A stretch of DNA of 64,000 bases from Minisyncoccota bacterium (GCA_035548655.1 DASZSN010000019.1:15245-79244), one strand, 5' to 3'; shown: positions 1,781-55,038, counted from the stretch's first letter. Translations and numbers: made by a program. The notes: a model not told the origin generated them from the sequence alone.

Positions 1781-1800
1781 CTTCTAAGTATACCTGCTTT

Positions 1801-3549: not shown

Positions 3550-3579
3550 GCACCAAGTATACCGCACGCTTCTCTGTAA

Positions 3580-3628
3580 TAAAAAAGATATACAAACAAC
3601 ACCATCCGCCGAGGAGGCGGATGGTGTT
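3580..3628 (-). terminator. Rho-independent terminator (13-bp stem AACACCATCCGCC/GGCGGATGGTGTT) serving the minus-strand gene 3641-4666
   Basis: A perfect hairpin at 3598-3628 followed on the minus strand by a T-rich run. Confidence 0.6.
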
Positions 3629-3640
3629 GTTTGTAATTGT

Positions 3641-4666: not shown

Positions 4667-4676
4667 ATGTTGTGAA

Positions 4677-7082
4677 TTATTGCTGGCAAATCTCATACCC
4701 AGTATGACTCGGGTCTGGAACACATGCGCCTAAGCACCCCTGCGATATTCCCGGCCACTCATTACACATACCTCCTGACGGCGGTGGTGGTGAACCAAGA
4801 TCAGTGAGTGTGACGGAGTCAGTGTTACTGCCGGCAAGGTTGGTGCATGTTAGAGAGTAGGTAGTGGTTGCTGATGGGGTAACGGTTGCATATCCAGAAG
4901 TATTGCCTGATGTCGAGAAACCGCTCCCTGTGCAAGAGTTTGCATACTGCGAACTCCAGGAGACCGTCACCGATGTGCCGTCATAGAAATATTGCGGGTT
5001 TGCGGATATGTTAGTCGTGGGAATCGGCGGGAGGATGATGTAGGGAACCGTAAGATCAGAGCCGTCCAATAAAGCATAAGTAACTTGTTCAGAAGCTGTG
5101 CCGTTACTTACCACTCCTGAAAACGCCTCCTGATCACAGGAAGATGAACCCCAGTGAAGTGTGTAGTCCATGTAATAACTGTTTGCCCCCAAGTAAGAAT
5201 ACGATGTGCCAGAATTGACTGCCGTCATAGACGGTGACCCAAAAGGAGAAGGGGGTGGGTATCCAAAACCATTGTCACTTGGAATATCGTAATATTGTAG
5301 TTTTAATTTTAAACCAAGACCAGATACATCGAGCGGAGTCGTTGCAGTAGGGTCACTGAAGAAACTCACAGTTTCAGTGACGTTGTAATAGTTGTAATGA
5401 TTAGTCCAACCAACATCAGCCCTACCATCACCACCAGGGCAAGATGATTCCGTTGGAAGATTTCTGTATCCATCATCGTCGGTATCAGCAACCTTCACAT
5501 AAATCGGTCCGTTAACTCCCGCAGTAAAATCAACGGTGTAGTTACCAGTAGACGGAGCGTTAAATTGTTTTGTATTATCAATGACATTTTGTCCTGGAGC
5601 GAGTGTTACAGATCCACCAAATAACTGAACTGAGGAGTTGTTCACTGTAACCGCCGAAAGGCTAATCGGATATGTTGTTGTGCCAGACGAGTTGCTCACC
5701 TGAGCATTTACCTTTATATGGTCTCCTTGATTATAAACAGTTGAGTCAATGCCCAAATTTAACATCACATCACTATTAAGAAAGAACGTCGTTGCGTGCG
5801 CATGTACAAACGGTGTAAGTCCGACAACAACAAAGAGTGCAAGTGCACTTATCGTTTTGCGGCCAAGCCGTTTCTTTATTGCCATGAGCACAACAACAGC
5901 AACAATGAGAATCACCAAGAGAAGGAGGCCGCCCCACGCACTTGAAAAGAGTTTCAAAGGAGAAGAGGGCACCGCGACAGATTTTTGCGCAAGTGCAGTA
6001 CCATCTGCTCCAGCAAGCGCAACGGTGATCTGCGGATTCACGCATGCTGAAGTAATCGGCACCATGACGTCCTGCATGCCCGGACCGGTTGCCTGCATCG
6101 TAGCTGTGCCGCATGAGCCACCTGAAACATTGGTAATCGTTGCGGTAATCATTGGAGTAAAGACACCGGAACCGTTCCAGAGAACGGAGAGTTTCGCCGT
6201 TTCCCCTTTGTGATAGCGATCCTTGTCAGGAGAGATATTTACCACCGTCGCAGAGATGCCGTTTCTGCTGTAGGCAAACGGAATCGTGTTTGATTTGTCG
6301 GTACCGACGACGAGCGAGAAAAATCCTTTGTACAATCCCGCATCAGCCGCAACCGGCACCGCAATTGTGACGGATTTTTTTGCACCGGCGGCAAGGGTGG
6401 TGGCGCTCGTATCGGGAGCGCTTGTTTTTGCGAGTGCACCGTATGCGCCGCGAGATTTGATGACAAATGACGGAGTCACCGTGATGGACGAGGTGCTTGT
6501 ATTGGTGATCGTACATGAAAGATAGAGAGATTGACCGCTACCGACAACAATACCCGAGGCAGTGGTTGCAGTACCGGGAGACTGTTTGCTGGTATTTAAA
6601 CGACATGTTTCAGGAGCAATGGCGACCCCGGAAGTTCCCGACAACGTCACATTGTCGATAGAGGCGATACCGAGCGGAAAACCACTGTCGTTGCCGCCTA
6701 CTATATAGAGCACGTATGCTCCCGAAAGTGCTGCAGGTGCTTCGTATACGATATCGCGGTTTGTTGTCGAATTTTCGGCAAGTACAAGTGTCTCGTCATA
6801 ATCCTTTTCATCTGCGACCGTTTGCGGTGATGAGGCAGGGACAAGTTGCACACTGTAATGCACTCCCGCCTGTACCCCCTTCCCATTCGTAAGGGAAAAA
6901 GAGAGATGAAATGTATTTCCTTCCTGAGAGGCAATGTGAGCATTTTGGATGTTGACTTCTGCAACAGCCAAAGGTTTCGTGGGAGTAGAAAGAGTATTCT
7001 GGGCCACTGCTATAGGAGCAGTAAGCAAAAAGAAAGTGAATATTGTTATGATCACTTTTTTAAATGATGGTGGCTGGTTCAT
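4677..7082 (-). CDS. Large Thr/Ser-rich surface protein (801 aa) with N-terminal signal peptide, internal hydrophobic anchor and Cys-rich C-terminus
   Basis: The N-terminus MNQPPSFKKVIITIFTFFLLTAPIAVAQ is signal-like. Mid-protein GGLLLLVILIVAVVVLMAIKKRLGRK is followed by the signal-like TISALALFVVVGLTPFVHAHA. Confidence 0.5.
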   Translation of the reverse strand: MNQPPSFKKVIITIFTFFLLTAPIAVAQNTLSTPTKPLAVAEVNIQNAHIASQEGNTFHLSFSLTNGKGVQAGVHYSVQLVPASSPQTVADEKDYDETLVLAENSTTNRDIVYEAPAALSGAYVLYIVGGNDSGFPLGIASIDNVTLSGTSGVAIAPETCRLNTSKQSPGTATTASGIVVGSGQSLYLSCTITNTSTSSITVTPSFVIKSRGAYGALAKTSAPDTSATTLAAGAKKSVTIAVPVAADAGLYKGFFSLVVGTDKSNTIPFAYSRNGISATVVNISPDKDRYHKGETAKLSVLWNGSGVFTPMITATITNVSGGSCGTATMQATGPGMQDVMVPITSACVNPQITVALAGADGTALAQKSVAVPSSPLKLFSSAWGGLLLLVILIVAVVVLMAIKKRLGRKTISALALFVVVGLTPFVHAHATTFFLNSDVMLNLGIDSTVYNQGDHIKVNAQVSNSSGTTTYPISLSAVTVNNSSVQLFGGSVTLAPGQNVIDNTKQFNAPSTGNYTVDFTAGVNGPIYVKVADTDDDGYRNLPTESSCPGGDGRADVGWTNHYNYYNVTETVSFFSDPTATTPLDVSGLGLKLKLQYYDIPSDNGFGYPPPSPFGSPSMTAVNSGTSYSYLGANSYYMDYTLHWGSSSCDQEAFSGVVSNGTASEQVTYALLDGSDLTVPYIILPPIPTTNISANPQYFYDGTSVTVSWSSQYANSCTGSGFSTSGNTSGYATVTPSATTTYSLTCTNLAGSNTDSVTLTDLGSPPPPSGGMCNEWPGISQGCLGACVPDPSHTGYEICQQ

Positions 7083-21932: not shown

Positions 21933-22004
21933 GCACCTGTGGTGAAATGGATATCATAAACGACTTCGGATCGTTTGTTGTGGGTTCGAGTCCTGCCAGG
22001 TGCG
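21933..22004 (+). tRNA. tRNA-Arg (anticodon TCG)
   Basis: Manual fold: acceptor GCACCTG/CAGGTGC, D-stem GTGA/TCAT, anticodon stem AACGA/TCGTT with loop CTTCGGA, T-loop TTCGAGT. No encoded CCA. Confidence 0.6.
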
Positions 22005-22045
22005 CATTGGAACTTTTGTACTTAATCTGTATAATTGTTCCACTT

Positions 22046-22116
22046 GCGGTCATAGTTTAGTGGCAGAACGCCTCGTTGCCAACGAGAAGGCTGGATTTCG
22101 ATTATCCATGGCCGCA
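22046..22116 (+). tRNA. tRNA-Gly (anticodon GCC)
   Basis: Manual fold: acceptor GCGGTCA/TGGCCGC, anticodon loop TTGCCAA, T-arm TGGAT TTCGATT ATCCA. No encoded CCA. Confidence 0.7.
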
Positions 22117-22291
22117 CAGAAATGTCTTTTTTGGAAATCCTTTGTTTTCAATAGTTTATTTGGAAACTGTGGATAAACGTGTGTGTAAGTCGGATAAAGG
22201 ACATGACTTTTATGACTGTCTTATTAAAAACGTTATAAAATAAGGATTTTTAAAAGTCATCTTTATTTAGTTTTCACGTGAAACGTCTAGA

Positions 22292-22654
22292 ATGATACGG
22301 ATTTTTACATCAAAAAAACAAGTCCTTGGTCAGTCAGGCGAAAAAGAAGCAGTGCGATTTCTCAAAAAAGAAGGGTTTTCGATCATCGGGCGGAACATTG
22401 CCAACAAATTTGGTGAGATCGACATCGTCGCAAGAAAAAAAGGGGTTACGTACTTTTTTGAAGTAAAAACAGGAAAAGAGGGGAGTTCGATCAGCCCCGC
22501 AGAAAATCTCACAAAACAAAAACTCCGGAAGTTTTTTATTTCCGTTCAACATTATTGTCTGGTCCATGAAGTGAACAATTGCCGGATGCAAGGGATACTC
22601 ATTTTACAAAAGCCGGAAGGCACGTATACTGTCGAGACAATCGAATTATCATAA
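22292..22654 (+). CDS. YraN-family (UPF0102) endonuclease-like protein
   Basis: GEKEAVRFLKKEGFSIIGRN...GEIDIVARK...FFEVKT matches the YraN/UPF0102 pattern. The stop codon directly abuts tRNA-Pro. Confidence 0.65.
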   Translation: MIRIFTSKKQVLGQSGEKEAVRFLKKEGFSIIGRNIANKFGEIDIVARKKGVTYFFEVKTGKEGSSISPAENLTKQKLRKFFISVQHYCLVHEVNNCRMQGILILQKPEGTYTVETIELS

Positions 22655-22728
22655 CGGGCTGTAGTACACCGGTAGTATTCACGATTCGGGTTCGTGAGAA
22701 CTGGGTTCGATTCCCAGCAGCCCGACCA
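22655..22728 (+). tRNA. tRNA-Pro (anticodon CGG), with encoded CCA
   Basis: Acceptor CGGGCTG/CAGCCCG, anticodon loop TTCGGGT, T-arm CTGGG TTCGATT CCCAG, discriminator A plus CCA. Confidence 0.8.
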
Positions 22729-22770
22729 AAAAGACCCTTTTCTCAATCAACTTCTTTATCCTGTAAACAA

Positions 22771-22806
22771 AAGACGCTGACGATGTGTCAGCGTCTTTTG
22801 TCTTTG
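22771..22806. terminator. Bidirectional terminator between convergent tRNA-Pro(CGG) and tRNA-Gly(CCC)
   Basis: A perfect 10-bp stem, AAGACGCTGA/TCAGCGTCTT, followed by TTGTCTTTGTG. Confidence 0.6.
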
Positions 22807-22877
22807 TGCGGGATACGAGAATCGAACTCGTGCCTACTGCTTGGGAAGCAGTCATTCTGCCACTAAACTAATCCCGC
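22807..22877 (-). tRNA. tRNA-Gly (anticodon CCC)
   Basis: Minus-strand fold: acceptor GCGGGAT/ATCCCGC, anticodon loop TTCCCAA, T-arm ACGAG TTCGATT CTCGT. Confidence 0.75.
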
Positions 22878-22961
22878 TTGTGCTCATATCCTAACAGATG
22901 GACAGGCGACGCTCAATTGACTTTCTCCGATAAACGCGTAGTCTGTATGAAAAACAAGTAA

Positions 22962-23324
22962 ATGAAAAAAATTCTTTTGATCTCCATCGACGATGGGATT
23001 TCTAAACAAGGAGTATTTGATGAAATGGACATTGCGGGAATAGATACAAAAATGGTGAAACTTATTTTTGTAGATAATGATATAGAAAATGCAAAGAAGA
23101 AAATCCCCGTATTCATCGCAAAAGGCACCCCTGATCTAATCTGCATAAATGGTGCAATTCCAATCACGGATCTTGAGAAATTACTTCAAAAGATATCAGA
23201 GGTGAAAGAAAAAGACGGCCTTAATTTCCAACTGTATTCCTTGGGTGAACGTCCCGAGAAGAGAAATCTTCTCTTTAAGAACCATTTGCGAGGCTACCCA
23301 GATCTTGCTCTGGTCCAGAGATAG
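22962..23324 (+). CDS. Hypothetical protein (120 aa)
   Basis: An ORF with its own terminator. Confidence 0.35.
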   Translation: MKKILLISIDDGISKQGVFDEMDIAGIDTKMVKLIFVDNDIENAKKKIPVFIAKGTPDLICINGAIPITDLEKLLQKISEVKEKDGLNFQLYSLGERPEKRNLLFKNHLRGYPDLALVQR

Positions 23325-23347
23325 CCCTTTTCAAGAGGGCTTTTTTT
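23322..23347 (+). terminator. Rho-independent terminator (AGCCCT..AGGGCT + T7)
   Basis: Seen at the stop of gene 22962-23324. Confidence 0.65.
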
Positions 23348-23404
23348 ATTTTTCCTTTATAAAAAAAATCTTTTCTGCTACGATACCCAGTACTCCAACA
23401 AGAT

Positions 23405-23475
23405 CGGGCTGTAGTACAGCGGTAGTATGCGCCCATGGGGTGGGTGTGACCCGAGTTCGACTCTCGGCAGCCCGA
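23405..23475 (+). tRNA. tRNA-Pro (anticodon GGG)
   Basis: Acceptor CGGGCTG/CAGCCCG, identical to the Pro(CGG) acceptor; anticodon loop ATGGGGT; T-arm CCGAG TTCGACT CTCGG. Confidence 0.7.
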
Positions 23476-23492
23476 CATCAAAATAATATCTT

Positions 23493-23525
23493 CGGGCTGT
23501 GGTATAACGGCTAACGTGCGTGGTG
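23493..23525 (+). pseudogene. Degenerate 5' tRNA-Pro fragment (acceptor plus D-arm copy without a 3' half)
   Basis: CGGGCTGTGGTATAACGGCTAACGTGCGTGG repeats the acceptor and D-arm of the neighbouring tRNA-Pro genes, but no matching 3' half follows. Confidence 0.35.
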
Positions 23526-23526
23526 G

Positions 23527-23628
23527 GGTTGAATATAAAGTCGGGACGTGGTGTAACGGCTAACATACGTGTTTTGGGTACACGTGACTCCGGGTTCGAA
23601 TCCCGGCGTCCCGACTTTATATTCAACC
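23527..23628. repeat. Perfect 22-bp inverted repeat (GGTTGAATATAAAGTCGGGACG / CGTCCCGACTTTATATTCAACC) enclosing tRNA-Pro(TGG)
   Basis: Left arm 23527-23548, right arm 23607-23628. The inner 7 bp of each arm are the tRNA acceptor stem. Confidence 0.8.
23542..23614 (+). tRNA. tRNA-Pro (anticodon TGG)
   Basis: Acceptor CGGGACG/CGTCCCG, D-arm GTGT AACGGCTA ACAT, anticodon stem CGTGT/ACACG with loop TTTGGGT, T-arm CCGGG TTCGAAT CCCGG. Confidence 0.8.
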
Positions 23629-23658
23629 AGTAGCATGGATATGCTACTGCGACGCAAG

Positions 23659-23692
23659 GCGCGACTCCGGGTTCAAATCACAGAGACCGGCA
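23659..23692 (+). pseudogene. Degenerate 3' tRNA fragment (T-arm-like GACTCCGGGTTCAAATCACAG)
   Basis: Near-copy of the T-arm region of tRNA-Pro(TGG), without a pairing 3' stem or acceptor. Confidence 0.3.
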
Positions 23693-23743
23693 ATCTGCCT
23701 TTTCAAGCGCAGATTTTGATAAAATAACAACAGCTACAAAAAA

Positions 23744-23814
23744 GCGGGATTAGTTTATCGGTAAAATAACAGTTTTCCAAACTGTGGTGAAGGGTTCGAC
23801 TCCCTTATCCCGCA
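23744..23814 (+). tRNA. tRNA-Gly (anticodon TCC)
   Basis: Acceptor GCGGGAT/ATCCCGC, anticodon stem ACAGT/ACTGT with loop TTTCCAA, T-arm AAGGG TTCGACT CCCTT. Confidence 0.8.
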
Positions 23815-23824
23815 CAAAAACAAG

Positions 23825-25077: not shown

Positions 25078-25096
25078 CGGCTTTTGTGTTTTTCTA
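25061..25096 (+). terminator. Rho-independent terminator (AAGCCGCTC..AGCGGCTT + T-run)
   Basis: Overlaps the stop codon of the 46-aa ORF. Confidence 0.6.
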
Positions 25097-26077
25097 TTTT
25101 GTCTTTGCGAAACCGGATTCGTACTGGGCAGCGGTCACTTTTCGATAGAAGATATAGCCATAGTCATCTTCGCTGTAGCTGATCCCCTGATCCGCTTCAA
25201 AACGATTTGGACCGATCGGAGTACGCGTCGGAAAGACTGCGTGCTCAGGAATGACGTTTTCGATCTTTTCTTCCCCATTCTCTTCTGAGACATATGTGTA
25301 TCCTTCGTTTGCTCGGGTGTCATTTTGATCACTTTTAGGAACCAGTGACATCACCCACGGCATCTTTTTACTGAAGTTTGGATTTTCTGTCGCAACGGCA
25401 GTGAGTATATCCTCTGATGCCGGTTGCCACCCGCCTTCTTTTTGCATGGCATTGATGATTGCCCCCGCTTTGTTATTATCGTTCTCATTCCCAGAAACCT
25501 TCACGACGCAAACCTCAACCGTCTTGTCGTGGTAGGGAATGAGATAGCGACTCTCGATAGTGACGTTGCCGACTTTTTTTCCTTCCTGAATAGCGGTAAT
25601 TGTTTTGACTCCACCAGCGATTTTTGCTTGCAGTGAATCTGTCGGATCGTTTTTCATTGCCACGACTTTTGCGTCTTTGTGCGAAAGTGAATCTTCGAGA
25701 GTTTTTGCATCCGCCTTGTGTGGTATAGCCATTGCACCGGCAATACCAAACATTGCCGCGACCCTAAGGTACCACGGTTTTTTTCTCTCTTCTTTTGGTC
25801 GTTCGTCTACCCACGATTCGTCCCCCATGCTCTTTTTTTCTTGTGCCGTATCAATAGCATGCTCAACACTGATGCTTTTTTTAATTTGTTTTATCTTTTC
25901 CTGATCAAGGGTGCTCGGTTTTTTATCCGGACGAGACTGCGCCGCGTTTTCAAATATTTCTTCTATTTTTTGCTGTTTTATCTGCTGTTCTTGTGGAGGC
26001 AATTCGCGGTCATCTTCAAATGGTTCCAATTGTTCGTTGGTGGGATTCTCGTATTTCATACGCCCATCATACCACAA
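25094..26077 (-). CDS. Hypothetical single-pass membrane protein (327 aa)
   Basis: Acidic, Lys-rich N-terminus, then TM WYLRVAAMFGIAGAMAI and an extracytoplasmic domain. Sits downstream of, and likely co-transcribed with, the ATPase gene. Confidence 0.4.
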   Translation of the reverse strand: MWYDGRMKYENPTNEQLEPFEDDRELPPQEQQIKQQKIEEIFENAAQSRPDKKPSTLDQEKIKQIKKSISVEHAIDTAQEKKSMGDESWVDERPKEERKKPWYLRVAAMFGIAGAMAIPHKADAKTLEDSLSHKDAKVVAMKNDPTDSLQAKIAGGVKTITAIQEGKKVGNVTIESRYLIPYHDKTVEVCVVKVSGNENDNNKAGAIINAMQKEGGWQPASEDILTAVATENPNFSKKMPWVMSLVPKSDQNDTRANEGYTYVSEENGEEKIENVIPEHAVFPTRTPIGPNRFEADQGISYSEDDYGYIFYRKVTAAQYESGFAKTK

Positions 26078-26101
26078 TCAAAACACCGGCTTGCGTCGGT
26101 G

Positions 26102-28843
26102 TTATTGATATCGTTTCATGATTTCCGCCTCGACTTCTTCACGGGGGCGGCCATAGGTGAGGTACGAGAGCTCTTTTATCTTGTCCGCGATTTCGTTGTT
26201 GCCTTTTGGTGGGGGTGGAATGCGCAGGTTGAACGGCTTTGACGGAACACCGGCGACTAGGATCTTCGCATAGGCATTGAAATTTTCGAGTTTGGTGATG
26301 TCGCTTGCGGTAAAGGTAGGGGCGAGTTGCTTTTCGAACACGTCAGCGTTTTCGGGCGAGACACGATAGATAATCATGTTGCCGACGTTGCCAAACACCG
26401 CATCGCGAATGTTCTCTTGGAGCTGTTCGATGTATTGGTGCGCGACAGTAAGTGAGAGGCGATATTTGCGCGCCTCGGAGAGAATGGTGGCGATAGAATC
26501 AGTCGTGACGTTTTGAAATTCATCGATGTAGAGATAAAAGTCATTGACCTCACCCTTGCCGATGATGTCAACGCGAGAAAGCGCCGCCATCGTGAGCTTG
26601 CCGACAAGTACGAGCCCGATGAGCGCGGAGTTGATATCCCCGAGACGGCCTTTTGAAAGGTTGACGAGCAAAATTTTTCGATTGTCCATGATGTCGCGAA
26701 AGTTGAGCACGCTCTCCTGCTGTGCAATGACCGGACGCATGATCTCGTTTGAGATAAAGACGTCGAACTTGTTGGTGATATAGGGGACAAAGTTTGCAAG
26801 CGACTGTTCACCGGTGGTTTTCTCCGCGTTGCGCCAAAACTGGACGATCACCGGATTTTTGCATTTTGATAGTTTCATTTCGCGAAATGCTTTGTCGGAG
26901 AGGACGCGCCCGATCTCGAGGAGTGTGGAGCCGCTTTCGGGGTCTTCCATCACGAGTCCGGCGGAATTTCGAAAATATTGTTCAAACGCGGGACCGCCGG
27001 CGACTTTCATGTCAAAGAGTTTGTTGAAAATGGCGAGAAGTTCGTTGATGACAAATGTTTTTTGCTCGGGATAGTTCTGATTGTATTCGAGCATGTTCAG
27101 TCCCATCGGTCGCGCGGTGTAGGCGGGATCAAAATAAATGACATCATCGAGTCGCTCCGAGGGGATGTTGGCAAGAATGTCGTCGAGGTCGCTACCGTGC
27201 GGGTCGATAAAGCATACGCCGCGACCGGATTTGATGTCTTGGATCGCCATGTTTTTCATGATCGTCGTTTTGCCGGTACCGGTCTGTCCAATCACATAGC
27301 AGTGACGAACACGATCTTCTTTGCCCAGATAGACATCGGTCGTTTCTCCGCGATGCGTATTGGTGCCGAGAAAGATGCCTTCTTTTGCTTGTTCGATGAG
27401 CGTCTGACCAACCGAGCGCGGTGCGGGAGCGGTAGCGGCAGGAGACTCTTTGAGCTCCGGCGCAACAGTGAGTCCGATGGGGAAATGAAACATGGTGGCA
27501 AGCTCGGCGATGGTGAGCGGGAGTTGTTCGCTTTTGGTGATGGTACGAAAACTAAAGTCATGCGCGAGATCGTTGATACGAGAGGTTTTTACATCGTCCC
27601 ATGCAAGCGCGTTTGATCCGACGAGAGCAAACTGGTTGAAGGAGGATTTGATCGTCGAGAGGATACTCTGCGCGCGCGTGAGTGTCGCGGCGGTCGTGAT
27701 AATGCGAATCCCCGCGGAAAGTGTCGGGCTCTGATGTTTCTTTTTTGCAAGCTCGATACCACGGGTGTCCATTTTCTTCTTTTTTTCTTCTTCGGTTTCT
27801 TCTTTTTCCGATTTGAACAATGAGAGCAGTCCTTTGCCAAAACCTTTGAGAACCCCTTCTACCGCGTCTTCGTAGAGCTCTTTTATCGGACGACCGGTTT
27901 TTTCCGCCGCCTCGATGACCGAGAGGATGAGCTTGTTGCTGTTATCGATATCTCCGCTGATGGTGATTTGAATCGCCGCACCTTCGCCGGCGTGTTCGAG
28001 CTTTGAAAGAGAACCAATGAGTGCCACAAGGGGGTCGTGTTCAAATGTCTCGTCGGTTTGCAATGGAAAAATCGCCGGTTCGGAGAGCTTTGCAACACTC
28101 CCCGAAATGCCGCCGCCATCGGAGGAAAAAATGTTGTAATCATCTGTCGCTTCTTCGATGGTGGCGCCGGGGTAGTACGAGCGGACGAGCTTTTCAAACG
28201 TATCGACGTGCATTCTCGGCACTGATGCAAAAAGATTGATGTCACGACCTTGATTTTGGACCGCAAGTTCGAGTGTGTAGTACATACCCTCCTGCCATCC
28301 GGCCGTCGATGTCATTCCCATATAAAACTGCTTCATCGCTTGAATGAAGCGTTTGAATTCACTCGCTTCGTTTTGATCTTTTGAAAGCGGCGGAAGTGTC
28401 ACCGTAAAGAGTGAGTGATCAAGTTCGCGACCGAGCGGACTTTCTTGCTTGAGACCGGGAATCGCACCAATAGTGTGTAAATACTGGACGAGAAAGCGAT
28501 GAAAATCATCTTCGAGGTGCGGACTGCCGAGCTGGGAGGCGATGTCGAGTGCATTTTTGACGCCCTTTTCGAGCATGATGCCAAAGAGTTCTTCGATTTT
28601 TTTGTCGTGCGCTTCAGGTTTGAGACGAAGCACAATACGCTCGGCTTCGTGAGCGGGAAGTACTGCGGTGTCGTGGAGAAAATCCGCGGCTTCGGCTTTC
28701 GCATACTGATCGACTGCCTCACGAGCGGCTTGCGCCTGCGTCGTGTTTGGTCGTTCTTGAAGAATGTATCTCTTCTGCGCTTCTTTTGAGAGATGCGACA
28801 GTTCTTGCGATGGAGTAGAAAATTTTTCTCCTGGGGGGAGCAT
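26102..28843 (-). CDS. TrwB/TraD/VirD4-like (AAA_10/DUF87-type) P-loop NTPase, 913 aa, no predicted TM
   Basis: Walker A CYVIGQTGTGKTT, CFIDPHGSD and Walker B LYIDEFQNV, with SLTVAHQ downstream. A roughly 450-aa N-terminal extension is unrecognised. Confidence 0.55.
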   Translation of the reverse strand: MLPPGEKFSTPSQELSHLSKEAQKRYILQERPNTTQAQAAREAVDQYAKAEAADFLHDTAVLPAHEAERIVLRLKPEAHDKKIEELFGIMLEKGVKNALDIASQLGSPHLEDDFHRFLVQYLHTIGAIPGLKQESPLGRELDHSLFTVTLPPLSKDQNEASEFKRFIQAMKQFYMGMTSTAGWQEGMYYTLELAVQNQGRDINLFASVPRMHVDTFEKLVRSYYPGATIEEATDDYNIFSSDGGGISGSVAKLSEPAIFPLQTDETFEHDPLVALIGSLSKLEHAGEGAAIQITISGDIDNSNKLILSVIEAAEKTGRPIKELYEDAVEGVLKGFGKGLLSLFKSEKEETEEEKKKKMDTRGIELAKKKHQSPTLSAGIRIITTAATLTRAQSILSTIKSSFNQFALVGSNALAWDDVKTSRINDLAHDFSFRTITKSEQLPLTIAELATMFHFPIGLTVAPELKESPAATAPAPRSVGQTLIEQAKEGIFLGTNTHRGETTDVYLGKEDRVRHCYVIGQTGTGKTTIMKNMAIQDIKSGRGVCFIDPHGSDLDDILANIPSERLDDVIYFDPAYTARPMGLNMLEYNQNYPEQKTFVINELLAIFNKLFDMKVAGGPAFEQYFRNSAGLVMEDPESGSTLLEIGRVLSDKAFREMKLSKCKNPVIVQFWRNAEKTTGEQSLANFVPYITNKFDVFISNEIMRPVIAQQESVLNFRDIMDNRKILLVNLSKGRLGDINSALIGLVLVGKLTMAALSRVDIIGKGEVNDFYLYIDEFQNVTTDSIATILSEARKYRLSLTVAHQYIEQLQENIRDAVFGNVGNMIIYRVSPENADVFEKQLAPTFTASDITKLENFNAYAKILVAGVPSKPFNLRIPPPPKGNNEIADKIKELSYLTYGRPREEVEAEIMKRYQ

Positions 28844-28912: not shown

Positions 28913-29434
28913 ATGTTAGGAAAACTTGTTGAACAGGAACTGCTTGGAAAAGTGAAGAAGGAGATTATGGAGTTTAATGGACTCCATGAAATCAAGACGT
29001 ACCAACCATACAAAACCGCCCTTCAATATGTAAAAAATCACCAGTACGGTGATCCAGAGAAACCGCATCGTTTTTTTCCGAAAAGTTTAATTGGAAAAAT
29101 AAAAGAAAATAAAGAACTTTTTTCAGGAAATGGGGAAGAAAAAATTGCATTTTATACCGCGATTGATTCAATCCTGGACCTCAAACATGGAGTTGACGCA
29201 TTTTTTGAATACAGAAAAAATGCAAAAGAGCCGGTGGTGCGGGTAACATTTGATGTCACGACAAATCCTAGTAAAGATCAGTACAAAGCCGAGGTTATTT
29301 TACTAATTCCATCTGAGGGACTTGATCCATCTGATACGGATTATGAAGATAGGATAGGGGACTACAGTCACCAAATAATTAGTGAGTTATTGACAAAGTT
29401 AGAAAAAAATGCAGAATATAGAAAAATTGACTAA
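28913..29434 (+). CDS. Hypothetical protein (173 aa)
   Basis: ORF only. Confidence 0.35.
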   Translation: MLGKLVEQELLGKVKKEIMEFNGLHEIKTYQPYKTALQYVKNHQYGDPEKPHRFFPKSLIGKIKENKELFSGNGEEKIAFYTAIDSILDLKHGVDAFFEYRKNAKEPVVRVTFDVTTNPSKDQYKAEVILLIPSEGLDPSDTDYEDRIGDYSHQIISELLTKLEKNAEYRKID

Positions 29435-29436
29435 TC

Positions 29437-29721
29437 ATGAAAACAGTAACAAAAAATGAACTTCTGGGGACAGTGGTGACCGATAGTAAGACTGATCACG
29501 TACCCGATCTCGAACTGCTTAAAGAAAAGGAAAGTGAGACCGCTGTAATAAGTGCATTTTGCACGGAGTGCGGCACATATCATGAACTCGCCTTTCCAGA
29601 GGCAGAAAAAATATTTACCGAACTTCAACAACCGTTGGATTTTGAGAATAAATATCTTTTGTTTGGGTCCTGCTCAAATTGCAAAGGACCGAATACATCC
29701 ATTGAGCTGAAAGCTTTTTGA
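29437..29721 (+). CDS. Small zinc-ribbon-like protein (94 aa)
   Basis: Two Cys pairs, CTECG...CSNCKGP. Confidence 0.35.
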   Translation: MKTVTKNELLGTVVTDSKTDHVPDLELLKEKESETAVISAFCTECGTYHELAFPEAEKIFTELQQPLDFENKYLLFGSCSNCKGPNTSIELKAF

Positions 29722-29727
29722 TTTATC

Positions 29728-29752
29728 CCGCCATTCGGCGGGGTTTTGTTAT
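29728..29752 (+). terminator. Rho-independent terminator (CCCGCC ATTC GGCGGG + GTTTTGTT)
   Basis: Seen after the stop at 29721. Confidence 0.6.
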
Positions 29753-29812
29753 TCATTGCGAATGAATCATAAAGTTGCTACCCTATCAGTATTACCATAG
29801 CGCCATATCATT

Positions 29813-30889
29813 ATGATTCTGGAAGACTATAAAAAGAAGATTGAAGACGCAGAGGACGCAACAAAGCCGGCACCACAGCCGACACTCAAAGAGGTTCTTG
29901 CAAATAAGGACAAAAGTGTCTTGTTTGGCGATCTGTTGAAACGAGAAGGGGACACCGACCTTGCCGAGCGAGTCGCAAAAGGAGAACTCAAAGAAGACGA
30001 CATCGCGGCACTTGAAGAGAAGCGCGGCATGTTTGGCAAAGCGATGCAAGAAGCCGAGGTGGTAAAGAGCCTCACCACTCCCGAAGCAGTCAAAGACTTT
30101 GCTCGAAACAACCCCGAATTTGAAAAAATCCTCAACCTCGTCGGACCGGAATCCGCTTCAAAAATCTTTCAAAAGAAAATCGAAGAGATTTCTATCAACG
30201 ATCCTGATCGATTTATGGACCTCTCGAACAGGATGAAAGCAATGCAAAGCTTCAAGAACGGTCAGTTTGCCGATCTCAACAATGAGGTCAGGGATCTCTG
30301 TCTAAAACGAGGTATTGGTGAGAAGCGTTATGCCGCCGCACTTGCAATCGAGGATCCGCGCGAACGAATGAAGGCGATTCACAAAGTGGTCACAGAAAAC
30401 TGGAGCGGTTGGAAAAAAGCGGCAGATTTCTTTACTCTTGGTAGTTGGTCAAGAAAACGCGCCCGCTTCATGGAAATGAAAAAAGACGATATCGATGCGA
30501 CACTTGTACAACTACGACTTCATCAAAACAACGTGGGGGCGATGCTCGCGGGTACGGTTGACGGGAACGAGGAGATGAGAAAGATGTTTGCCGCAGAACT
30601 CACCGCAGGCAAAATCAAAGGGGAACCGAAACTTAGCTTTAAGGACATGAAACAGGAGTTGGAATCACCGGAGAATTACACTGACTTGTGGACAAAACAC
30701 AAGAAAGACAAACTTAAAAATTGGGATACTCTTTCTGATGATAACAAACAAAAAGCTGTCGACAAGTTTATCGGAGAGGCGATTCAAAAATTACTCCAAA
30801 AGTATAAAGGAAAAGAGGGTTCATGGGCACAGTTAATGAAAATAATGATGATGGCCATGATAAAAGGCAATAGAAATAAGTATAATTAA
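29813..30889 (+). CDS. Hypothetical coiled-coil protein (358 aa)
   Basis: ORF only; Lys/Glu-rich. Confidence 0.4.
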   Translation: MILEDYKKKIEDAEDATKPAPQPTLKEVLANKDKSVLFGDLLKREGDTDLAERVAKGELKEDDIAALEEKRGMFGKAMQEAEVVKSLTTPEAVKDFARNNPEFEKILNLVGPESASKIFQKKIEEISINDPDRFMDLSNRMKAMQSFKNGQFADLNNEVRDLCLKRGIGEKRYAAALAIEDPRERMKAIHKVVTENWSGWKKAADFFTLGSWSRKRARFMEMKKDDIDATLVQLRLHQNNVGAMLAGTVDGNEEMRKMFAAELTAGKIKGEPKLSFKDMKQELESPENYTDLWTKHKKDKLKNWDTLSDDNKQKAVDKFIGEAIQKLLQKYKGKEGSWAQLMKIMMMAMIKGNRNKYN

Positions 30890-30894
30890 CCCAT

Positions 30895-31179
30895 ATGACA
30901 GCAACTGAACTATACAATCAATTTAAAGCGTTCGTCGATGCAGGGGATGAGAAAGGGGCGCGAGCGTTTCTCGCTGAACATATCAATGAATTTCCGGAGG
31001 ATATCCGCGACAACATCGCGTTTGCATTTTTTGAAGAGGCGGTACAAAACGATACTGAAGGAATCGTCGAAAACGCTCAGATACAACAAGAAGGCGCACA
31101 CTTACTCGAAGAGCTCGACAAAGTGGAAGCGATGCTCGAGGATGCCAAGAAGGCCACAGAAATAAAAGATACTATGTAA
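30895..31179 (+). CDS. Hypothetical acidic protein (94 aa)
   Basis: ORF with its own terminator. Confidence 0.35.
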   Translation: MTATELYNQFKAFVDAGDEKGARAFLAEHINEFPEDIRDNIAFAFFEEAVQNDTEGIVENAQIQQEGAHLLEELDKVEAMLEDAKKATEIKDTM

Positions 31180-31183
31180 TCAA

Positions 31184-31212
31184 AACCCCCGCGTGCGGGG
31201 GTTTTGCTATAC
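31184..31212 (+). terminator. Rho-independent terminator (AAACCCCCG CGTG CGGGGGTTT)
   Basis: Seen after the stop at 31179. Confidence 0.65.
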
Positions 31213-31220
31213 TTTTTCAT

Positions 31221-31571
31221 ATGGAAAACGAACCGGCAACAACAAAACAGGAAGTGGATGTGGAGACGACTGATTCGAGAGAACACATGACGGTATCACC
31301 TCAAGGAACGTTGGTGGTAGAAAAAGAGAACCGAACCGCTCTCATGGCGCAATATAGGGATATTAAAAAAGACATCGAAGCAATAAAAAAAGTGCAACTT
31401 ATGAAAAACCACTACGGGGTTCGAAAAGACAGTCTCCCTGTTGAACTTTCGAAGTATGCAGATATCCCCCTTGAAGAAAAGATGGACCAAGAGAGAATAA
31501 TCAAAAAGAAGTTGAAACATATTCCAAAAAGGAATCTCTTGAAACGACTGGCGCTCTTTTTGCATCTCTAA
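31221..31571 (+). CDS. Hypothetical protein (116 aa)
   Basis: ORF only. Confidence 0.3.
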   Translation: MENEPATTKQEVDVETTDSREHMTVSPQGTLVVEKENRTALMAQYRDIKKDIEAIKKVQLMKNHYGVRKDSLPVELSKYADIPLEEKMDQERIIKKKLKHIPKRNLLKRLALFLHL

Positions 31572-46263: not shown

Positions 46264-47121
46264 ATGCGTCGAATTTTTTCCATCATCATCACCATCCTCG
46301 TCATCATCGGCATCATTTTGCTCGGATCCTGGCTTTTGGCGCGCCACACTGCGGTAAAAAACGGGGGTGTTGCCCCAACATTTCGAGAATTTTTAACTCT
46401 GGGAACCAATCAGGCGGTCGCACCGACACCGCAGACAGGCGGAACACTCTCTCCTGATGTTACACAAAACGGCGAAGTGCCTTCTTCTCCAAACACTCCA
46501 TCAACTCCAAGTGCTCCATCGGATCACGTTGCCGTGAGTCAGTTCACCGGCGCTCCTACAACGCCCGCTGAGAACAATACAACCCGATCGGGGAGCGCAA
46601 ATGTCGCAACAACGCAAACATTCCCCACGTCGACTGTCGTTACCTCTACGGGAACGACGTCAGCACCAAGCGCCCCTGTCACACCTGCGGTTGCCGGCCC
46701 CGCCTGCAACGACGCTGATCTTGCCATTGATTTCACTCCCGACGAGATCACTCGTCTAAACGCGTTGCAAAATCGTTTTTATGCCATTTCTGAGAACCTT
46801 CACACCGACGCTGAAGCGGAAGCCGAGCTTGCAAACTACAACACATTCAAATCAAAAGCTGATGAGGCAACAGAGCTCTATAACTACTGCCTTGCGGAAA
46901 GCCCGCTTATCACTGCTCCTCTCTATAAAACTCGAGTAAACACACCGTTTTGGAGAGACTCCACGCGTGACAGCGCGGGATATATTAGTGGTGCGACCAG
47001 TACGCGTAACACCTTGGCTCAAAATCTCTTAAACAGTGGAGATTGGCGTGTAGTCAATCCGGAAAACCAAGACGCCGCAAAAAGAACGCTGGAACGAGTT
47101 TTTCAACTCAATCTGTGGTAA
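46264..47121 (+). CDS. Membrane-anchored Thr/Pro-rich protein (285 aa)
   Basis: N-terminal TM FSIIITILVIIGIILLGSWLL and a low-complexity linker. Confidence 0.4.
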   Translation: MRRIFSIIITILVIIGIILLGSWLLARHTAVKNGGVAPTFREFLTLGTNQAVAPTPQTGGTLSPDVTQNGEVPSSPNTPSTPSAPSDHVAVSQFTGAPTTPAENNTTRSGSANVATTQTFPTSTVVTSTGTTSAPSAPVTPAVAGPACNDADLAIDFTPDEITRLNALQNRFYAISENLHTDAEAEAELANYNTFKSKADEATELYNYCLAESPLITAPLYKTRVNTPFWRDSTRDSAGYISGATSTRNTLAQNLLNSGDWRVVNPENQDAAKRTLERVFQLNLW

Positions 47122-47190
47122 CTGGTCAGAAAGCTTAGAAAAAGTGGGTTTTCATTAGTACGCCGTATGACTTCTTGATATACTAGTGTT

Positions 47191-51635: not shown

Positions 51636-51713
51636 TGGTGGATGCAACCACCACAAGTGAATGTAACACTCCCTATATCTGTCTAAAAGGCGAGGGTACG
51701 GTATACTTACGTT

Positions 51714-52124
51714 ATGCAGTTCAAGGTTCCGCAGTTTATTGATGTTGAGGATAAAGTAATCGGTCCGTTGACGTTCAAACAATTTGCATACCTCGCCGGA
51801 GGGGGAGGACTTGTGTATCTTGCATTCAGATTGCTTCCGACACTTGTCGCATTTCCGGTCGCGGCCGCATTTGCCGCACTCGCACTTGCACTCGCATTCT
51901 TTAAATACAACGAAAAACCCTTTTCGTATCTTCTGGAGTCCTTTGTTCGATTTCATCTCCGCTCCCGCCTCTACCTCTGGCACAAACAACCACACATCAA
52001 AGAGAAGGAGCCGGCGGAAAAGGTCGAGAAACGAAGCTTTTTTGATCGTTCGGCACTCACTGAAAGCAAACTCAAGACACTTTCATGGTCGCTTGATGTG
52101 ATTGATCCGAAGAGTAGTGAATAA
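51714..52124 (+). CDS. PrgI/VirB3-like small membrane protein of conjugative/T4SS systems
   Basis: FKVPQFIDVEDKVIGPLTFKQFAYLAGGG followed by two hydrophobic helices, resembling the PrgI family. Confidence 0.45.
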   Translation: MQFKVPQFIDVEDKVIGPLTFKQFAYLAGGGGLVYLAFRLLPTLVAFPVAAAFAALALALAFFKYNEKPFSYLLESFVRFHLRSRLYLWHKQPHIKEKEPAEKVEKRSFFDRSALTESKLKTLSWSLDVIDPKSSE

Positions 52125-52125
52125 T

Positions 52126-52764
52126 ATGGCAACGCTTGGTGCTCCGGCACAACAATTCGTCCCTGTCAAAGAAGTCCGCGATGGTATCATCGTGCTCAAA
52201 GACGGCACACTCTGCGCGGTGCTCCTCGTCTCGTCGATCAACCTCACCCTTAAAGCATATGATGAACAGCGAGCGGTGCTGTTGCAGTTTCAAGGATTTC
52301 TCAATACGCTTGATTTTCCAATTCAGATTGTGATCCAATCGCGCCGCTATGACATCCGACCCTATATTTTGACGCTTGAAAATCGCCTTAAAAGCATCAA
52401 CGAACAGCTATTGCAGATACAAACGAGAGAGTACATCGAATTCATCCAATCTTTCACCGATCAGGTGAACATTATGAAGAAGTCATTTTTTATTGTCATC
52501 CCCTATGTACCTGCGATCCTCAAACAAGAAAAAGGAGTGGGGAAACTTCTTTCATTTTTCAAAAAGCCTCCGAGCGCACAGGTCGCTGTGTCGGACTTTG
52601 AAGAAGAGCGTTCACAACTTGAAGAACGAATGAGTGTCGTTGAACAGGGACTTACCGGCCTCGGACTTCGGCTGGTGCAGTTAGGCACACAGGAGGCAAT
52701 CGAGCTTCTCTACAAGACGTTCAATCCCGGCGACACCGCTTCGGAAGCAAAACCGACGAAGTAA
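52126..52764 (+). CDS. VirB4/TraE-type ATPase, N-terminal fragment (212 aa)
   Basis: Length and position match the N-domain of Gram-positive VirB4 homologues. It is followed after a cassette by the ATPase portion. The ATG lies immediately after the PrgI-like stop. Confidence 0.5.
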   Translation: MATLGAPAQQFVPVKEVRDGIIVLKDGTLCAVLLVSSINLTLKAYDEQRAVLLQFQGFLNTLDFPIQIVIQSRRYDIRPYILTLENRLKSINEQLLQIQTREYIEFIQSFTDQVNIMKKSFFIVIPYVPAILKQEKGVGKLLSFFKKPPSAQVAVSDFEEERSQLEERMSVVEQGLTGLGLRLVQLGTQEAIELLYKTFNPGDTASEAKPTK

Positions 52765-53198
52765 AAAGTTCGTCAAGTTGTCAGGTTATCAAGTGGTGAA
52801 CACATGAGGCACTTTGAAGACATACAAGCATGGCAAAAAGCAAAAGCATTGACTGTTCTTATTTACGAAGATTTTTCCACCTGTAAGGATTTTTCGTTTA
52901 AAAATCAGATTGAACGAGCGAGTGTTTCAATCATGAACAACATTGCTGAGGGGTTTGAACGACAGACAAACAAAGAGTTTAGAAACTTTCTCTATATCGC
53001 GAAAGGATCCTGTGGGGAGGTGCGGTCAATGCTCTCTGTCGCGAAAGACCTTCACTACATCCATGAGAAAAAGTTTGAGGTTGTAACAAATCTATCTCTT
53101 GAAGTGATAAAAATGATTTCTGGATTGATCAAAAAGCTCTAACTTGACAAGCTTGATAACTTTATAAACTTTATAACTCGCGGTATACTTACCGCCGT
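52765..53198. mobile_element. Low-GC insertion cassette splitting the VirB4-like gene, bracketed by short inverted repeats
   Basis: GTCAAGTT (52772-52779) pairs with AACTTGAC (53141-53148). GTTATCAAG (52785-52793) pairs with CTTGATAAC (53152-53160). The cassette is visibly AT-richer than its flanks. Confidence 0.4.
52804..53142 (+). CDS. Four-helix-bundle protein (23S rRNA intervening-sequence protein / Avd-like family)
   Basis: 112 aa. FEDIQAWQKA...SIMNNIAEGFER...FLYIAKGSCGEVRS matches the conserved pattern of the IVS/four-helix-bundle family. Confidence 0.6.
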   Translation: MRHFEDIQAWQKAKALTVLIYEDFSTCKDFSFKNQIERASVSIMNNIAEGFERQTNKEFRNFLYIAKGSCGEVRSMLSVAKDLHYIHEKKFEVVTNLSLEVIKMISGLIKKL

Positions 53199-55013
53199 AT
53201 GGCACTTTTTTCTAAAAAGGAACGCGACGAGAAACAACATTCTCTCACTCCGATTCCCATGGAGGATGTCTACGAGTGGGCGACCATGGAGCTTGCGGAC
53301 AAAATCGCTCCGTCGGCAATCGAAATCACTCCTCGAAGCATGCGCATCGGAGACAAAATCGTCCGAAGCTTTTTCGTGATTGCTTACCCACGATTTCTCA
53401 CTGACAACTGGCTCACTCCAATCATCAACCTCGACAAAGTGTTCGATATCGCGATGTATATCAGCCCGATTGAAACCGCGGAGCTTCTGCGTCATTTCCA
53501 AAAAAAGATTGCTGAGGTCGAAAGCCAAATCATCACTCGTCAACAGCGCGGGCTCGTACGGGACCCTCGGCTTGATACCGCCTATCAAGATCTAGAGGGA
53601 TTGCGCGACAATCTCACTCAGGCACAAGAAAAAATGTTCGATGTCGGATTTTATATCACTATCTATGCCGACAATGAGAACGACTTGTTTCGAACAGAAA
53701 GTGAGCTTCGATCCTTGTTTGAATCAAAGATGATTTACATCAAACCGACACTTTTTCAAGAAGAGGATGGGTTCAAAACAGTCGTGCCGCTTGGGACCGA
53801 TCGCCTCAGTGTGACACAGAAGCTCAATTCGGAGCCGATTTCGAGTATGTTTCCATTCGTTTCGTTCGATCTCACCTCGGACACCGGCATCCTCTATGGC
53901 GTCAATCGACACAATTCATCGCTCATCATTTTTGACCGCTTCTCGCTCGAAAACTACAATTCCATCATTTTTGCAAAAGCGGGCGCGGGGAAAAGCTACG
54001 CTACCAAGCTCGAAATTATCCGCACCCTTATGTTCGATACCGAAGTACTCGTTATCGACCCGGAGCGTGAGTATGAGTACTTGGCGGAAGCGGTTGGGGG
54101 ACGATACTTTAACATCTCACTTTCTTCTGATCACCATATCAATCCATTCGATCTGCCGATACCGCGAGAAGATGAGGCGCCGGCGGATGTACTGCGAAGC
54201 AATGTCATCAACTTGGTCGGATTGTTCCGAATCATGCTCGGCGGACTCTCTCCTGAAGAAGATTCGCTCGTTGACCGGGCAATCACTGAGACGTACGCGC
54301 TCAAAGACATCAGCGCGGAGTCAGACTTTTCAAAGGTCGAGCCGCCGCTTCTTTCAGATTTTGAAATGGTGCTCCAGGGAATGGAGGGAACTGAGTCGCT
54401 TCTCCAGCGCCTTACCAAGTTCACTCACGGCTCGTGGGCAAACTTCATCAACCAACCAACAAACGTCGATATCAACAAAAAATTCGTTGTGTTCTCGGTA
54501 CGTGATATGGAAGACGATCTCAAACCGGCGGCAATGTATATCGTGACGCATTTTATCTGGAACGCGATTCGCAAAGAACTCAAAAAGCGTCTCCTTGTCG
54601 TGGATGAAGCGTGGTGGATGATGAAAAGCGACGATACTGCCTCGTTCCTTTATTCGATCGCCAAGCGCGGCCGCAAATACTATCTGGGCCTTGCGACCAT
54701 CACTCAAGACGTTGGGGACTTCATGAAGAGCCCGTACGGAGTGCCGATTGTCACGAACTCCTCCATTCAACTGCTCCTCAAACAATCTCCCGCTACCATC
54801 GACATCCTAAAACAGACATTTAACCTCACTGATGAGGAGAAGTATTTGTTGCTTGAGTCCGGTGTTGGGGAGGGGATTTTCTTTGCCGGGCTCAAACATG
54901 TGGCGATCAAGATCATTGCCTCGTATACCGAAGATCAGATCATCACATCCGACCCGTCACAAATCATCTCGATCCGGCAGGCACAAAAGGAATTTCGAGA
55001 GCAACACGCATAG
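53199..55013 (+). CDS. VirB4/TraC/PrgJ-type conjugative ATPase, C-terminal major portion (604 aa)
   Basis: Walker A FAKAGAGKSY, VLVIDPEREY, Walker B LLVVDEAWWMM and the C-terminal YYLGLATITQDVGDF, typical of VirB4-family ATPases. Confidence 0.8.
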   Translation: MALFSKKERDEKQHSLTPIPMEDVYEWATMELADKIAPSAIEITPRSMRIGDKIVRSFFVIAYPRFLTDNWLTPIINLDKVFDIAMYISPIETAELLRHFQKKIAEVESQIITRQQRGLVRDPRLDTAYQDLEGLRDNLTQAQEKMFDVGFYITIYADNENDLFRTESELRSLFESKMIYIKPTLFQEEDGFKTVVPLGTDRLSVTQKLNSEPISSMFPFVSFDLTSDTGILYGVNRHNSSLIIFDRFSLENYNSIIFAKAGAGKSYATKLEIIRTLMFDTEVLVIDPEREYEYLAEAVGGRYFNISLSSDHHINPFDLPIPREDEAPADVLRSNVINLVGLFRIMLGGLSPEEDSLVDRAITETYALKDISAESDFSKVEPPLLSDFEMVLQGMEGTESLLQRLTKFTHGSWANFINQPTNVDINKKFVVFSVRDMEDDLKPAAMYIVTHFIWNAIRKELKKRLLVVDEAWWMMKSDDTASFLYSIAKRGRKYYLGLATITQDVGDFMKSPYGVPIVTNSSIQLLLKQSPATIDILKQTFNLTDEEKYLLLESGVGEGIFFAGLKHVAIKIIASYTEDQIITSDPSQIISIRQAQKEFREQHA

Positions 55014-55038
55014 GACAGGTAAATGTTATACTTTCTCT

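Follow-up and report, generated by a model that had tools for sequence, protein, structure and literature searches.

A coupling-protein-type ATPase behind a predicted VirB4-like domain in Patescibacteria, and its possible link to the chromosomal type IV secretion system

Introduction

Homologues of type IV coupling proteins (T4CPs) are nearly universal in Patescibacteria. Quinonero-Coronel et al. (2025; PMC12102498) count 5,713 of them in 2,918 of 3,035 genomes (96%), with only 148 near virB4, and describe T4CP genes far from virB4 as common in other systems as well. The same study describes a type IV secretion system (T4SS), derived from the MPF-FATA type and located near dnaA, in which relaxases are almost always absent. 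For epibiotic growth of Southlakia epibionticum, the one cultured Patescibacterium examined by transposon sequencing (Tn-seq), the T4SS was essential. The T4CP homologues of published work are scattered and of unclear role. The subject of this study is a T4CP-type ATPase of 913 amino acids (aa) encoded on a stretch of 64,000 nt from a Minisyncoccota bacterium (GCA_035548655.1, DASZSN010000019.1:15245-79244). This whole stretch is called the window, and coordinates are counted from its first letter.

The protein very probably belongs to the T4CP homologues of PMC12102498 (the 't4cp1' set of its Table S3). The two are alike in phylum, in matching VirD4-type T4CP profiles, in lying typically far from virB4 and in being near-universal. 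The class of the finding, orphan T4CP homologues of Patescibacteria, is already known. Three features appear to be undescribed in the literature searched: a T4CP-type motor placed behind a VirB4-type N-terminal domain, a single transmembrane (TM) helix in most members of the family, and a small partner protein that is separate or fused according to lineage, with the anchor lost where it is fused. The available portion of PMC12102498 does not mention the domain architecture, the VirB4-like N-terminal domain, the single TM helix or the split or fused upstream protein. Among the T4CP subfamilies covered in the accessible part of PMC7434980, none has a VirB4-like N-terminal domain. Tentatively, and at somewhat below an even chance, we favour the reading that the 913-aa protein is the coupling or energising ATPase of the chromosomal T4SS, on which it would dock through its VirB4-like domain.

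A T4CP-type ATPase domain

By sequence comparison, the C-terminal half of the protein is a T4CP-type (TrwB/TraD/VirD4-like) ATPase, far below the curated cut-off of any named T4CP family. An initial annotation, made from the sequence alone, had proposed a coupling-protein type for this half and had located Walker A, DPHG, DEFQ and AHQ motifs in it; both the motifs and the assignment hold. Walker A, DPHG (aa 547-550), YIDEFQN and AHQ (Table 1) are each invariant across 28 close homologues. The order of the Walker A, Walker B and Q motifs is that of VirD4, TrwB and TraD, and a helical insert is predicted between Walker A and Walker B. The nucleotide-binding domain includes a conserved C-terminal tail, LSYLxYGRPREEVEAEI.

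Profile matches of the single sequence were weak and mixed (DUF87 27 bits, SXT_TraD 56 and the PADLOC model mad8 59.5), and an alignment, A3, was therefore built from 27 diverse family members (30-56% identity), all of which were put through the same profile tests. Residues G519, G522 and K525 of Walker A are invariant in all 27. Among the Pfam models for T4CPs, TraG-D_C matched 26 of the 27 members, TrwB_AAD_bind 25 (best 8e-11) and T4SS-DNA_transf 11 (best 3e-12); among those of NCBIfam, SXT_TraD matched every member and the CD1115 VirD4-like and TOL TraD models 26 each. Matches to models of other ATPases were fewer or weaker. For example, the VirB4 model AAA_10 was found in four members and HerA_C in three, while the NCBIfam models VirB4_CagE and HerA matched 16 (much more weakly) and six (weakly), respectively; the Pfam model CagE_TrbE_VirB was not among the families listed for the A3 members. 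DUF87 was found in 24; in the window protein it extends over model positions 3-68 of 220, the Walker A end, and no further. The window protein itself scores above the Pfam cut-offs for T4SS-DNA_transf (24.4 bits against 20.1) and TraG-D_C (25.0 against 22) and narrowly below that for TrwB_AAD_bind (20.3 against 20.5), a model for which distant members reach 68-72 bits; in the distant member P0227 the match spans profile positions 8-318.

Searches with the alignment gave the same picture. Against PDB sequences the A3 profile found TrwB (6e-7), DotL (6e-5) and HerA (0.013), and VirB4 was not listed. With hhalign, A3 and TrwB could be aligned over 265 columns (aa 504-810 with TrwB 115-393), a span that runs from Walker A through Walker B to the Q motif, and the probability was 95.8% (E 7e-9). 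In this alignment the insert at aa ~590-722 falls opposite the part of TrwB that separates its two Walker motifs; helices H592-721 of the insert are predicted in the full-length model at moderate to low confidence. The clear result was obtained with TrwB only. Comparisons with single sequences of the T4CPs TraD (17.9%) and PcfC (2.3%) and of the VirB4 proteins TraC (6.7%) and PrgJ (5.8%) are non-discriminating, and the VirB4 protein TrwK gave 6.8%. A hidden Markov model (HMM) of the C-terminal domain scored 35.8 bits on TrwB, 10.6 on TraD and 8.5 on PcfC, against 2.8 on TraC, 1.0 on PrgJ and -0.5 on TrwK. Taken together, these Pfam, NCBIfam, PDB, hhalign and HMM tests point to a T4CP-like ATPase half.

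The protein differs from VirD4, TrwB and TraD in what precedes this half. The N-terminal TM domain of two helices is missing, as the initial annotation had recognised, and the hydropathy of the 913-aa protein reveals no TM helix; its sole hydrophobic stretch, aa 736-762, belongs to the conserved core of the ATPase. In place of the TM domain there are a domain of ~315 aa, predicted to be VirB4-like, and a fused helical domain. The gene is also chromosomal and set in a housekeeping context, with no relaxase or T4SS genes adjoining.

HerA-type ATPases of defence modules belong to the same P-loop superfamily, and the initial annotation had raised them as an alternative. The PADLOC model mad8 matches aa 503-840, and some members have weak HerA matches, so that one might think of a HerA-like defence ATPase, of a Mad8-like ATPase of MADS, or of the coupling protein of an integrated conjugative element. 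Any of these is very improbable. HerA models reach only three to six of the 27 members, DUF87 touches little beyond Walker A in the window protein, and the N-terminal domain is predicted to match VirB4 and not the HerA N-terminal barrel. Neighbouring genes were compared with the best 80 related loci from GTDB species genomes, all of them from metagenome-assembled genomes (MAGs). No defence, nuclease, methylase, relaxase, integrase or mobile-element genes adjoin the ATPase in the window or in these loci, and within 10 kb of the ATPase the 80 loci are free of nuclease and defence genes, as is the vicinity of the window ATPase, which is without the partner genes of the HerA/FtsK-superfamily defence ATPases. 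Eight neighbouring genes in the window were scanned and gave no PADLOC match (the mad operon comprises eight genes, methylase, kinase and specificity subunits among them). The HerA or defence reading was rejected on the ranking of profiles and on these neighbourhoods, and a T4CP of a mobile element on flanks that are housekeeping and syntenic.

A predicted VirB4-like N-terminal domain

The first 450 aa had been described as an extension of unknown nature. Instead, they can be divided into a helical domain at aa 1-135, homologous to a free-standing small protein that is treated below, and a domain at aa ~140-455 whose predicted fold resembles that of the VirB4 N-terminal domain. Neither had been foreseen by the initial annotation. 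The AlphaFold2 (AF2) model of aa 1-470 is usable (pLDDT 78.7, pTM 0.72), and in a Foldseek search with it the top 14 matches were all TrwK chains, with E values from 8.5e-6 to 2e-3. The query does not include the P-loop domain, and the match is therefore presumably to the N-terminal domain of VirB4. EccE of type VII secretion is a weaker fold match.

The region corresponds to DUF8128 (PF26449), for which the window protein and most of its homologues have a precomputed 'weak' match only (E 1e-5 to 1e-3). A Pfam scan at E up to 1 did not return PF26449, a model that the scanned copy may lack, and no mention of DUF8128 was found in the literature searched. Several polar residues of the domain are conserved. 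All 27 diverse members share E192, Q292, K369, R433 and E447, and at least 90% of them have R380 and H453.

In solved T4SS structures, VirB4 docks onto the inner-membrane platform by way of its N-terminal domain. If a docking domain of VirB4 type is indeed present, a near-universal T4CP-like ATPase would have a concrete route by which to plug into the T4SS. It would also bear on the divergence of coupling proteins and VirB4.

The resemblance to VirB4 (TrwK of R388; PDB 7o42, 8rtd) is thus far one of predicted fold in the N-terminal domain. The protein has the two-domain build of VirB4, and a TM helix precedes it in many relatives, as in VirB3-VirB4 fusions. It could be a second VirB4-type ATPase, used in assembly of the machine or in pilin extraction alongside the split VirB4 of the T4SS cluster, a reading to which we give little weight. 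In all sequence comparisons the ATPase domain groups with T4CPs rather than VirB4; for example, the VirB4 model TIGR00929 gives 24 bits on the window protein against a cut-off of 643. The C-terminal domain of the full-length model, which might otherwise be compared, is of low confidence. Unlike VirB4, the gene lies between those of RNase Y and HU, outside a T4SS cluster that has its own pair of TrsD-like and VirB4-like genes. VirB4 HMM searches reported in PMC12102498 find about one VirB4 per Patescibacteria genome, and this family is therefore not picked up as VirB4.

Two forms of the family: a small protein apart or fused

The family is large, with 20,188 cluster representatives (50% identity) at E<=1e-3 and 5,141 at E<=1e-30. 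Homologues of the window protein number more than 1,378, and the top 120 match over the full length at 64-78% identity. In this analysis the family appears to be confined to Patescibacteria and vertically inherited. The informative names among the 80 loci are those of Patescibacteria lineages (Nomura-, Taylor-, Zambryski-, Kaiser-, Adler-, Moran-, Komeili-, Falkow-, Azam-, Vogel- and Niyogibacteria), next to a few generic or dubious labels. At NCBI the members are named either 'TraM recognition domain-containing protein' or 'type IV secretory system conjugative DNA transfer family protein'.

Two architectures can be distinguished. In form (a), of ~790-860 aa, alignment and a hydropathy scan place one N-terminal TM helix directly before the VirB4-like domain. 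Form (b), to which the window protein belongs, has ~900-935 aa, no TM helix and an extra helical region of ~130 aa. A strongly hydrophobic N-terminal segment, with a large extra domain behind it, occurs in about half of 150 representatives; in 80 the hydropathy reaches 1.6 or more within the first 120 aa, and for most of these it exceeds 2. This anchor in relatives had also not been anticipated.

At form (a) loci a gene for a soluble protein of ~140 aa, here called C6, stands immediately upstream on the same strand and is often preceded by a DUF5663 gene. C6 has no Pfam family. An HMM of C6 had 148 matches among roughly 290 proteins collected; in the window protein it matches aa 40-123 with 30.8 bits (E 5e-9 to 7e-9). 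The two features exclude each other: of 75 full-length ATPases in the GTDB loci, 31 carry the TM helix, 39 the fused C6-like domain and none both. Free-standing C6-like proteins number 18 in 1.27 Mb of loci and are, without exception, encoded directly upstream of a TM-type ATPase. From the HMM match, this exclusivity and the placement of C6 it follows that the window protein is a fusion of the upstream small-protein gene to the ATPase, with loss of the TM helix. If the ATPase is cytoplasmic, a further cytoplasmic domain in front of an N-terminal TM helix would be hard to reconcile with it, and the mutual exclusion of helix and fusion could stem from this. By the logic of gene fusions an interaction between the small protein and the ATPase is probable, which makes the former, split or fused, a predicted interaction partner.

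Some variation surrounds this pattern. Examples of the small upstream gene are found at 9334-9759 in L051 and 9155-9881 in L052 (of loci L046-L085), and in five loci a different protein of ~160 aa (C35) takes the place of C6. The DUF5663 protein that precedes C6 has ~104 aa; in three loci a protein of ~950 aa and then DUF5663 follow the ATPase. Members of 1,200-2,000 aa with large C-terminal extensions also occur (P0169, P0172-P0174, P0177, P0179, P0180, P0184, P0186, P0187). A scan of three such extensions (P0169, P0172, P0173) gave no Pfam domain, and fusion thus offers no hint at function. In P0167 a second P-loop is found near aa 820. A further set, P0216-P0272 (e.g., P0256/P0290), consists of proteins of ~820-950 aa that match only the ATPase half (aa ~485-912) at 41-49% identity, have no N-terminal TM helix and apparently carry other N-terminal domains. 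One cluster member of this set is named 'ActR/RegA family two-component response regulator' by its source.

Table 1. Positions of the ATPase gene, its domains and motifs, the gene downstream of it and the T4SS-like cluster in the window.
Feature	Position	Strand	Basis or remark
913-aa soluble T4CP-like ATPase gene	26102..28843	-	Open reading frame (ORF); stop codon 26102-26104; also called on NCBI contig CAZMBW010000012.1
aa 1-135, helical N-terminal domain, homologue of free-standing ~140-aa C6	28439..28843	-	C6 HMM; all-helical AF2 model
aa ~140-455, predicted fold of VirB4 N-terminal domain	27479..28426	-	Pfam DUF8128, weak precomputed match
aa 456-488, low-complexity linker, probably disordered (APELKESPAATAPAPRS...)	27380..27478	-	pLDDT <50 in both models
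aa 489-913, T4CP-type nucleotide-binding domain	26105..27379	-	hhalign against TrwB; Pfam T4SS-DNA_transf, TraG-D_C, TrwB_AAD_bind, DUF87; NCBIfam SXT_TraD
Walker A GQTGTGKT, aa 519-526	27266..27289	-	Invariant in close homologues
aa ~590-722, predicted all-helical insert between Walker A and B	26678..27076	-	Position of TrwB all-alpha domain
Walker B region YIDEFQN, aa 772-778	26510..26530	-	Aligns with TrwB segment FIDELASL
AHQ motif, aa 801-803, after Walker B	26435-26443	-	Aligns with TrwB segment GLQ
Terminator-like hairpin and T-rich run directly after ATPase stop codon	26082..26103	-	Sequence
Lineage-specific 321-aa gene	25094..26059	-	ATG start 26059 per gene callers; ORF extends 25094-26077
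T4SS-like cluster	about 42528-59315	+	Directly upstream of dnaA (60847) and dnaN (62387)
1305-aa polytopic membrane protein	47191-51108	+	T4SS cluster
TrsD-like 220-aa gene	52102-52764	+	TrsD and VirB4 N-terminal-part models
VirB4-like 604-aa ATPase gene	53199-55013	+	P-loop_TraG 81.6 bits
677-aa protein with pilin-like segment	55989-58022	+	T4SS cluster

Relation to the chromosomal T4SS

The T4SS-like cluster that the initial annotation had placed 14 kb from the ATPase does begin ~13.7 kb away, at 42528, and its VirB4-like gene is 24 kb distant. Its arrangement is that of the origin-proximal T4SS described for Patescibacteria in PMC12102498. Besides the genes of Table 1 the cluster holds several proteins that have one TM helix at the N-terminus and match no family. 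No T4CP-like gene is found inside it; the 913-aa ATPase, which has no paralogue in the window, is the sole T4CP-like gene of the whole stretch. A functional link between the ATPase and the cluster 14-24 kb away is plausible, and the core of the cluster (52102..55013) would be the candidate partner.

The cluster's own VirB4 appears to be split, into the TrsD-like protein of 220 aa (the N-terminal part of VirB4 models) and the ATPase of 604 aa. Between their genes lies one of the '23S rRNA intervening sequence protein' family (52804-53142, 120.8 bits).

The C-terminal half presumably forms an ATP-driven translocase, a hexamer. Most relatives (~800 aa) are anchored in the membrane through the one N-terminal TM helix, with the gene for the ~140-aa soluble protein preceding theirs. 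In the window lineage the small protein has become fused to the N-terminus of the ATPase and the TM helix has disappeared, leaving a soluble protein. If the favoured link to the T4SS is correct, the partner machine would be the conjugation-derived chromosomal T4SS, 14-30 kb away and next to dnaA. Docking on it would occur through the VirB4-like domain, perhaps with a contribution from the fused adaptor domain, and ATP hydrolysis would serve to deliver a substrate, either protein or DNA. One may go further and regard the family as a third, Patescibacteria-wide lineage of T4SS motors, an intermediate or chimera of VirB4 and T4CP that would be the unrecognised coupling ATPase of the essential T4SS and would have the ~140-aa protein as its adaptor. 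This wider proposal is decidedly unlikely in our estimate.

The genes around the ATPase offer a different view. The window and its close relatives have the order ClpP - RNase Y - ... - ATPase - ... - HU in common, and other genomes with form (b) have SecY-Adk-Map-[ATPase]-Ndk. The stretch from the ATPase to HU and the divergent upstream genes (28913-31571) are variable and without Pfam or PADLOC families. When the window's own genes were searched for in the 80 GTDB loci, each was found in zero to two loci, and synteny therefore extends only to close relatives. The only recurrent neighbours of the family are the small C6 protein and DUF5663, both without known function.

The domain content of the protein favours a link to the T4SS, and the neighbourhoods and published phyletic numbers favour a translocase that is independent of it. 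In the latter case the family would have been exapted for a housekeeping role, e.g., the handling of DNA or protein at the membrane in division, uptake or turnover, and would represent a core Patescibacteria motor of unassigned function. We regard this as somewhat unlikely, and it is the main rival to a role in the T4SS. Several observations count in its favour and weigh against the T4SS link. No VirB4, relaxase or T4SS component lies within 10 kb of the ATPase in any of the 80 related loci, where the neighbours are housekeeping genes, and the family is near-universal. The identity among the top 120 homologues is unlike that of fast-evolving plasmid T4CPs. According to PMC12102498, VirB4 is found in 2,417 genomes against 2,918 with T4CP homologues, a difference of about 500. 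The T4CP homologue of Southlakia is described there as non-essential, whereas the T4SS genes are essential, and its authors raise exaptation. Wang et al. (2023; PMC10633639) saw no recognisable coupling protein in the Southlakia T4SS, and relaxases are almost always missing from the T4SS of Patescibacteria.

The assignment of the two domains has its own weak points. The window protein lies far under the curated NCBIfam cut-offs for T4CPs (SXT_TraD 56 bits against 366, TOL TraD 35 against 648, CD1115 35 against 250). No sequence similarity of its N-terminal domain to those of TrwK, TraC or PrgJ is detectable, and the link to VirB4 rests on a predicted model.

On the other side, the neighbourhoods supply an exapted translocase with no alternative partner or pathway beyond C6 and DUF5663. 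A VirB4-like N-terminal domain, as predicted here, is otherwise known only from T4SS ATPases, with EccE the weaker match. The genomes in which virB4 is missing may reflect assembly gaps, as the dataset of PMC12102498 includes drafts down to 50% estimated completeness.

The gene downstream of the ATPase

Two ORFs on one strand had been read between 25094 and 28843, the second of them as a single-pass membrane protein of 327 aa that could anchor the ATPase in trans. Both are present and the ATPase has the expected 913 aa; the downstream gene codes for 321 aa. Its product has a charged N-terminal region of ~95 aa, a marginal hydrophobic stretch at aa 98-112 and a C-terminal domain of ~200 aa. The stretch, LRVAAMFGIAGAMAI, has a Kyte-Doolittle value of 1.82 over 15 residues and 1.15 over 19. 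The single-pass membrane nature of the earlier description depends on this one stretch and is plausible, though not established. The protein has no Pfam, NCBIfam or PADLOC family.

Coupling proteins without a TM segment of their own are known. For example, TraJ of pIP501 is tethered by TraI, and TraG/TraJ of R27 form a comparable pair; such T4CPs rely on an adjacent small membrane protein (PMC7434980). The window ATPase resembles them as a T4CP-type ATPase lacking its own TM segment, and its gene and the downstream one are on one strand and 42 bp apart, so that the 321-aa product might likewise act as a tether in trans. Such an arrangement is scarcely probable. A search of 5.8 billion proteins returned two matches to the 321-aa protein, itself and one homologue (41% identity), and the anchor in trans is therefore unsupported. 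The gene of the lone homologue is 1.5 kb downstream of its ATPase, behind two other genes. In a genome with a 70%-identical ATPase the gene is absent and HU directly follows the ATPase, and this rarity stands against an ATPase family of more than 20,000 cluster representatives. A terminator-like hairpin with a T-rich run separates the two genes and therefore co-transcription is not assured; a strong hairpin also follows the 321-aa gene. Unlike the pIP501 and R27 proteins, the window ATPase is without a conserved membrane-protein neighbour, and a fused soluble domain takes the place of the lost TM helix. The anchor in trans was rejected on the single homologue, the separation of that homologue from its ATPase and the absence of the gene beside the 70%-identical ATPase. 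Whether or not the ATPase serves the T4SS, the claim of a membrane anchor from the next gene can be dropped.

Other genes of the window

Upstream of the ATPase and divergent from it are five consecutive genes on the + strand (28913-31571), with products of 173, 94, 358, 94 and 116 aa. They gave no Pfam or PADLOC match and no tblastn match in the 80 related GTDB loci, and in two closer relatives their place is held by different genes. At 551-7082 there is a group of genes, all on the - strand, that comprises type IV pilus PilC (551-1780) and PilB (1801-3567), a PKD-domain protein (3641-4723) and an 801-aa protein without a family match (4677-7082). Seven tRNA genes (Arg-TCG, Gly-GCC, Pro-CGG, Gly-CCC on the - strand, Pro-GGG, Pro-TGG and Gly-TCC) are clustered at 21933-23815, interspersed with a UPF0102 (YraN-like) gene and a small orphan gene.

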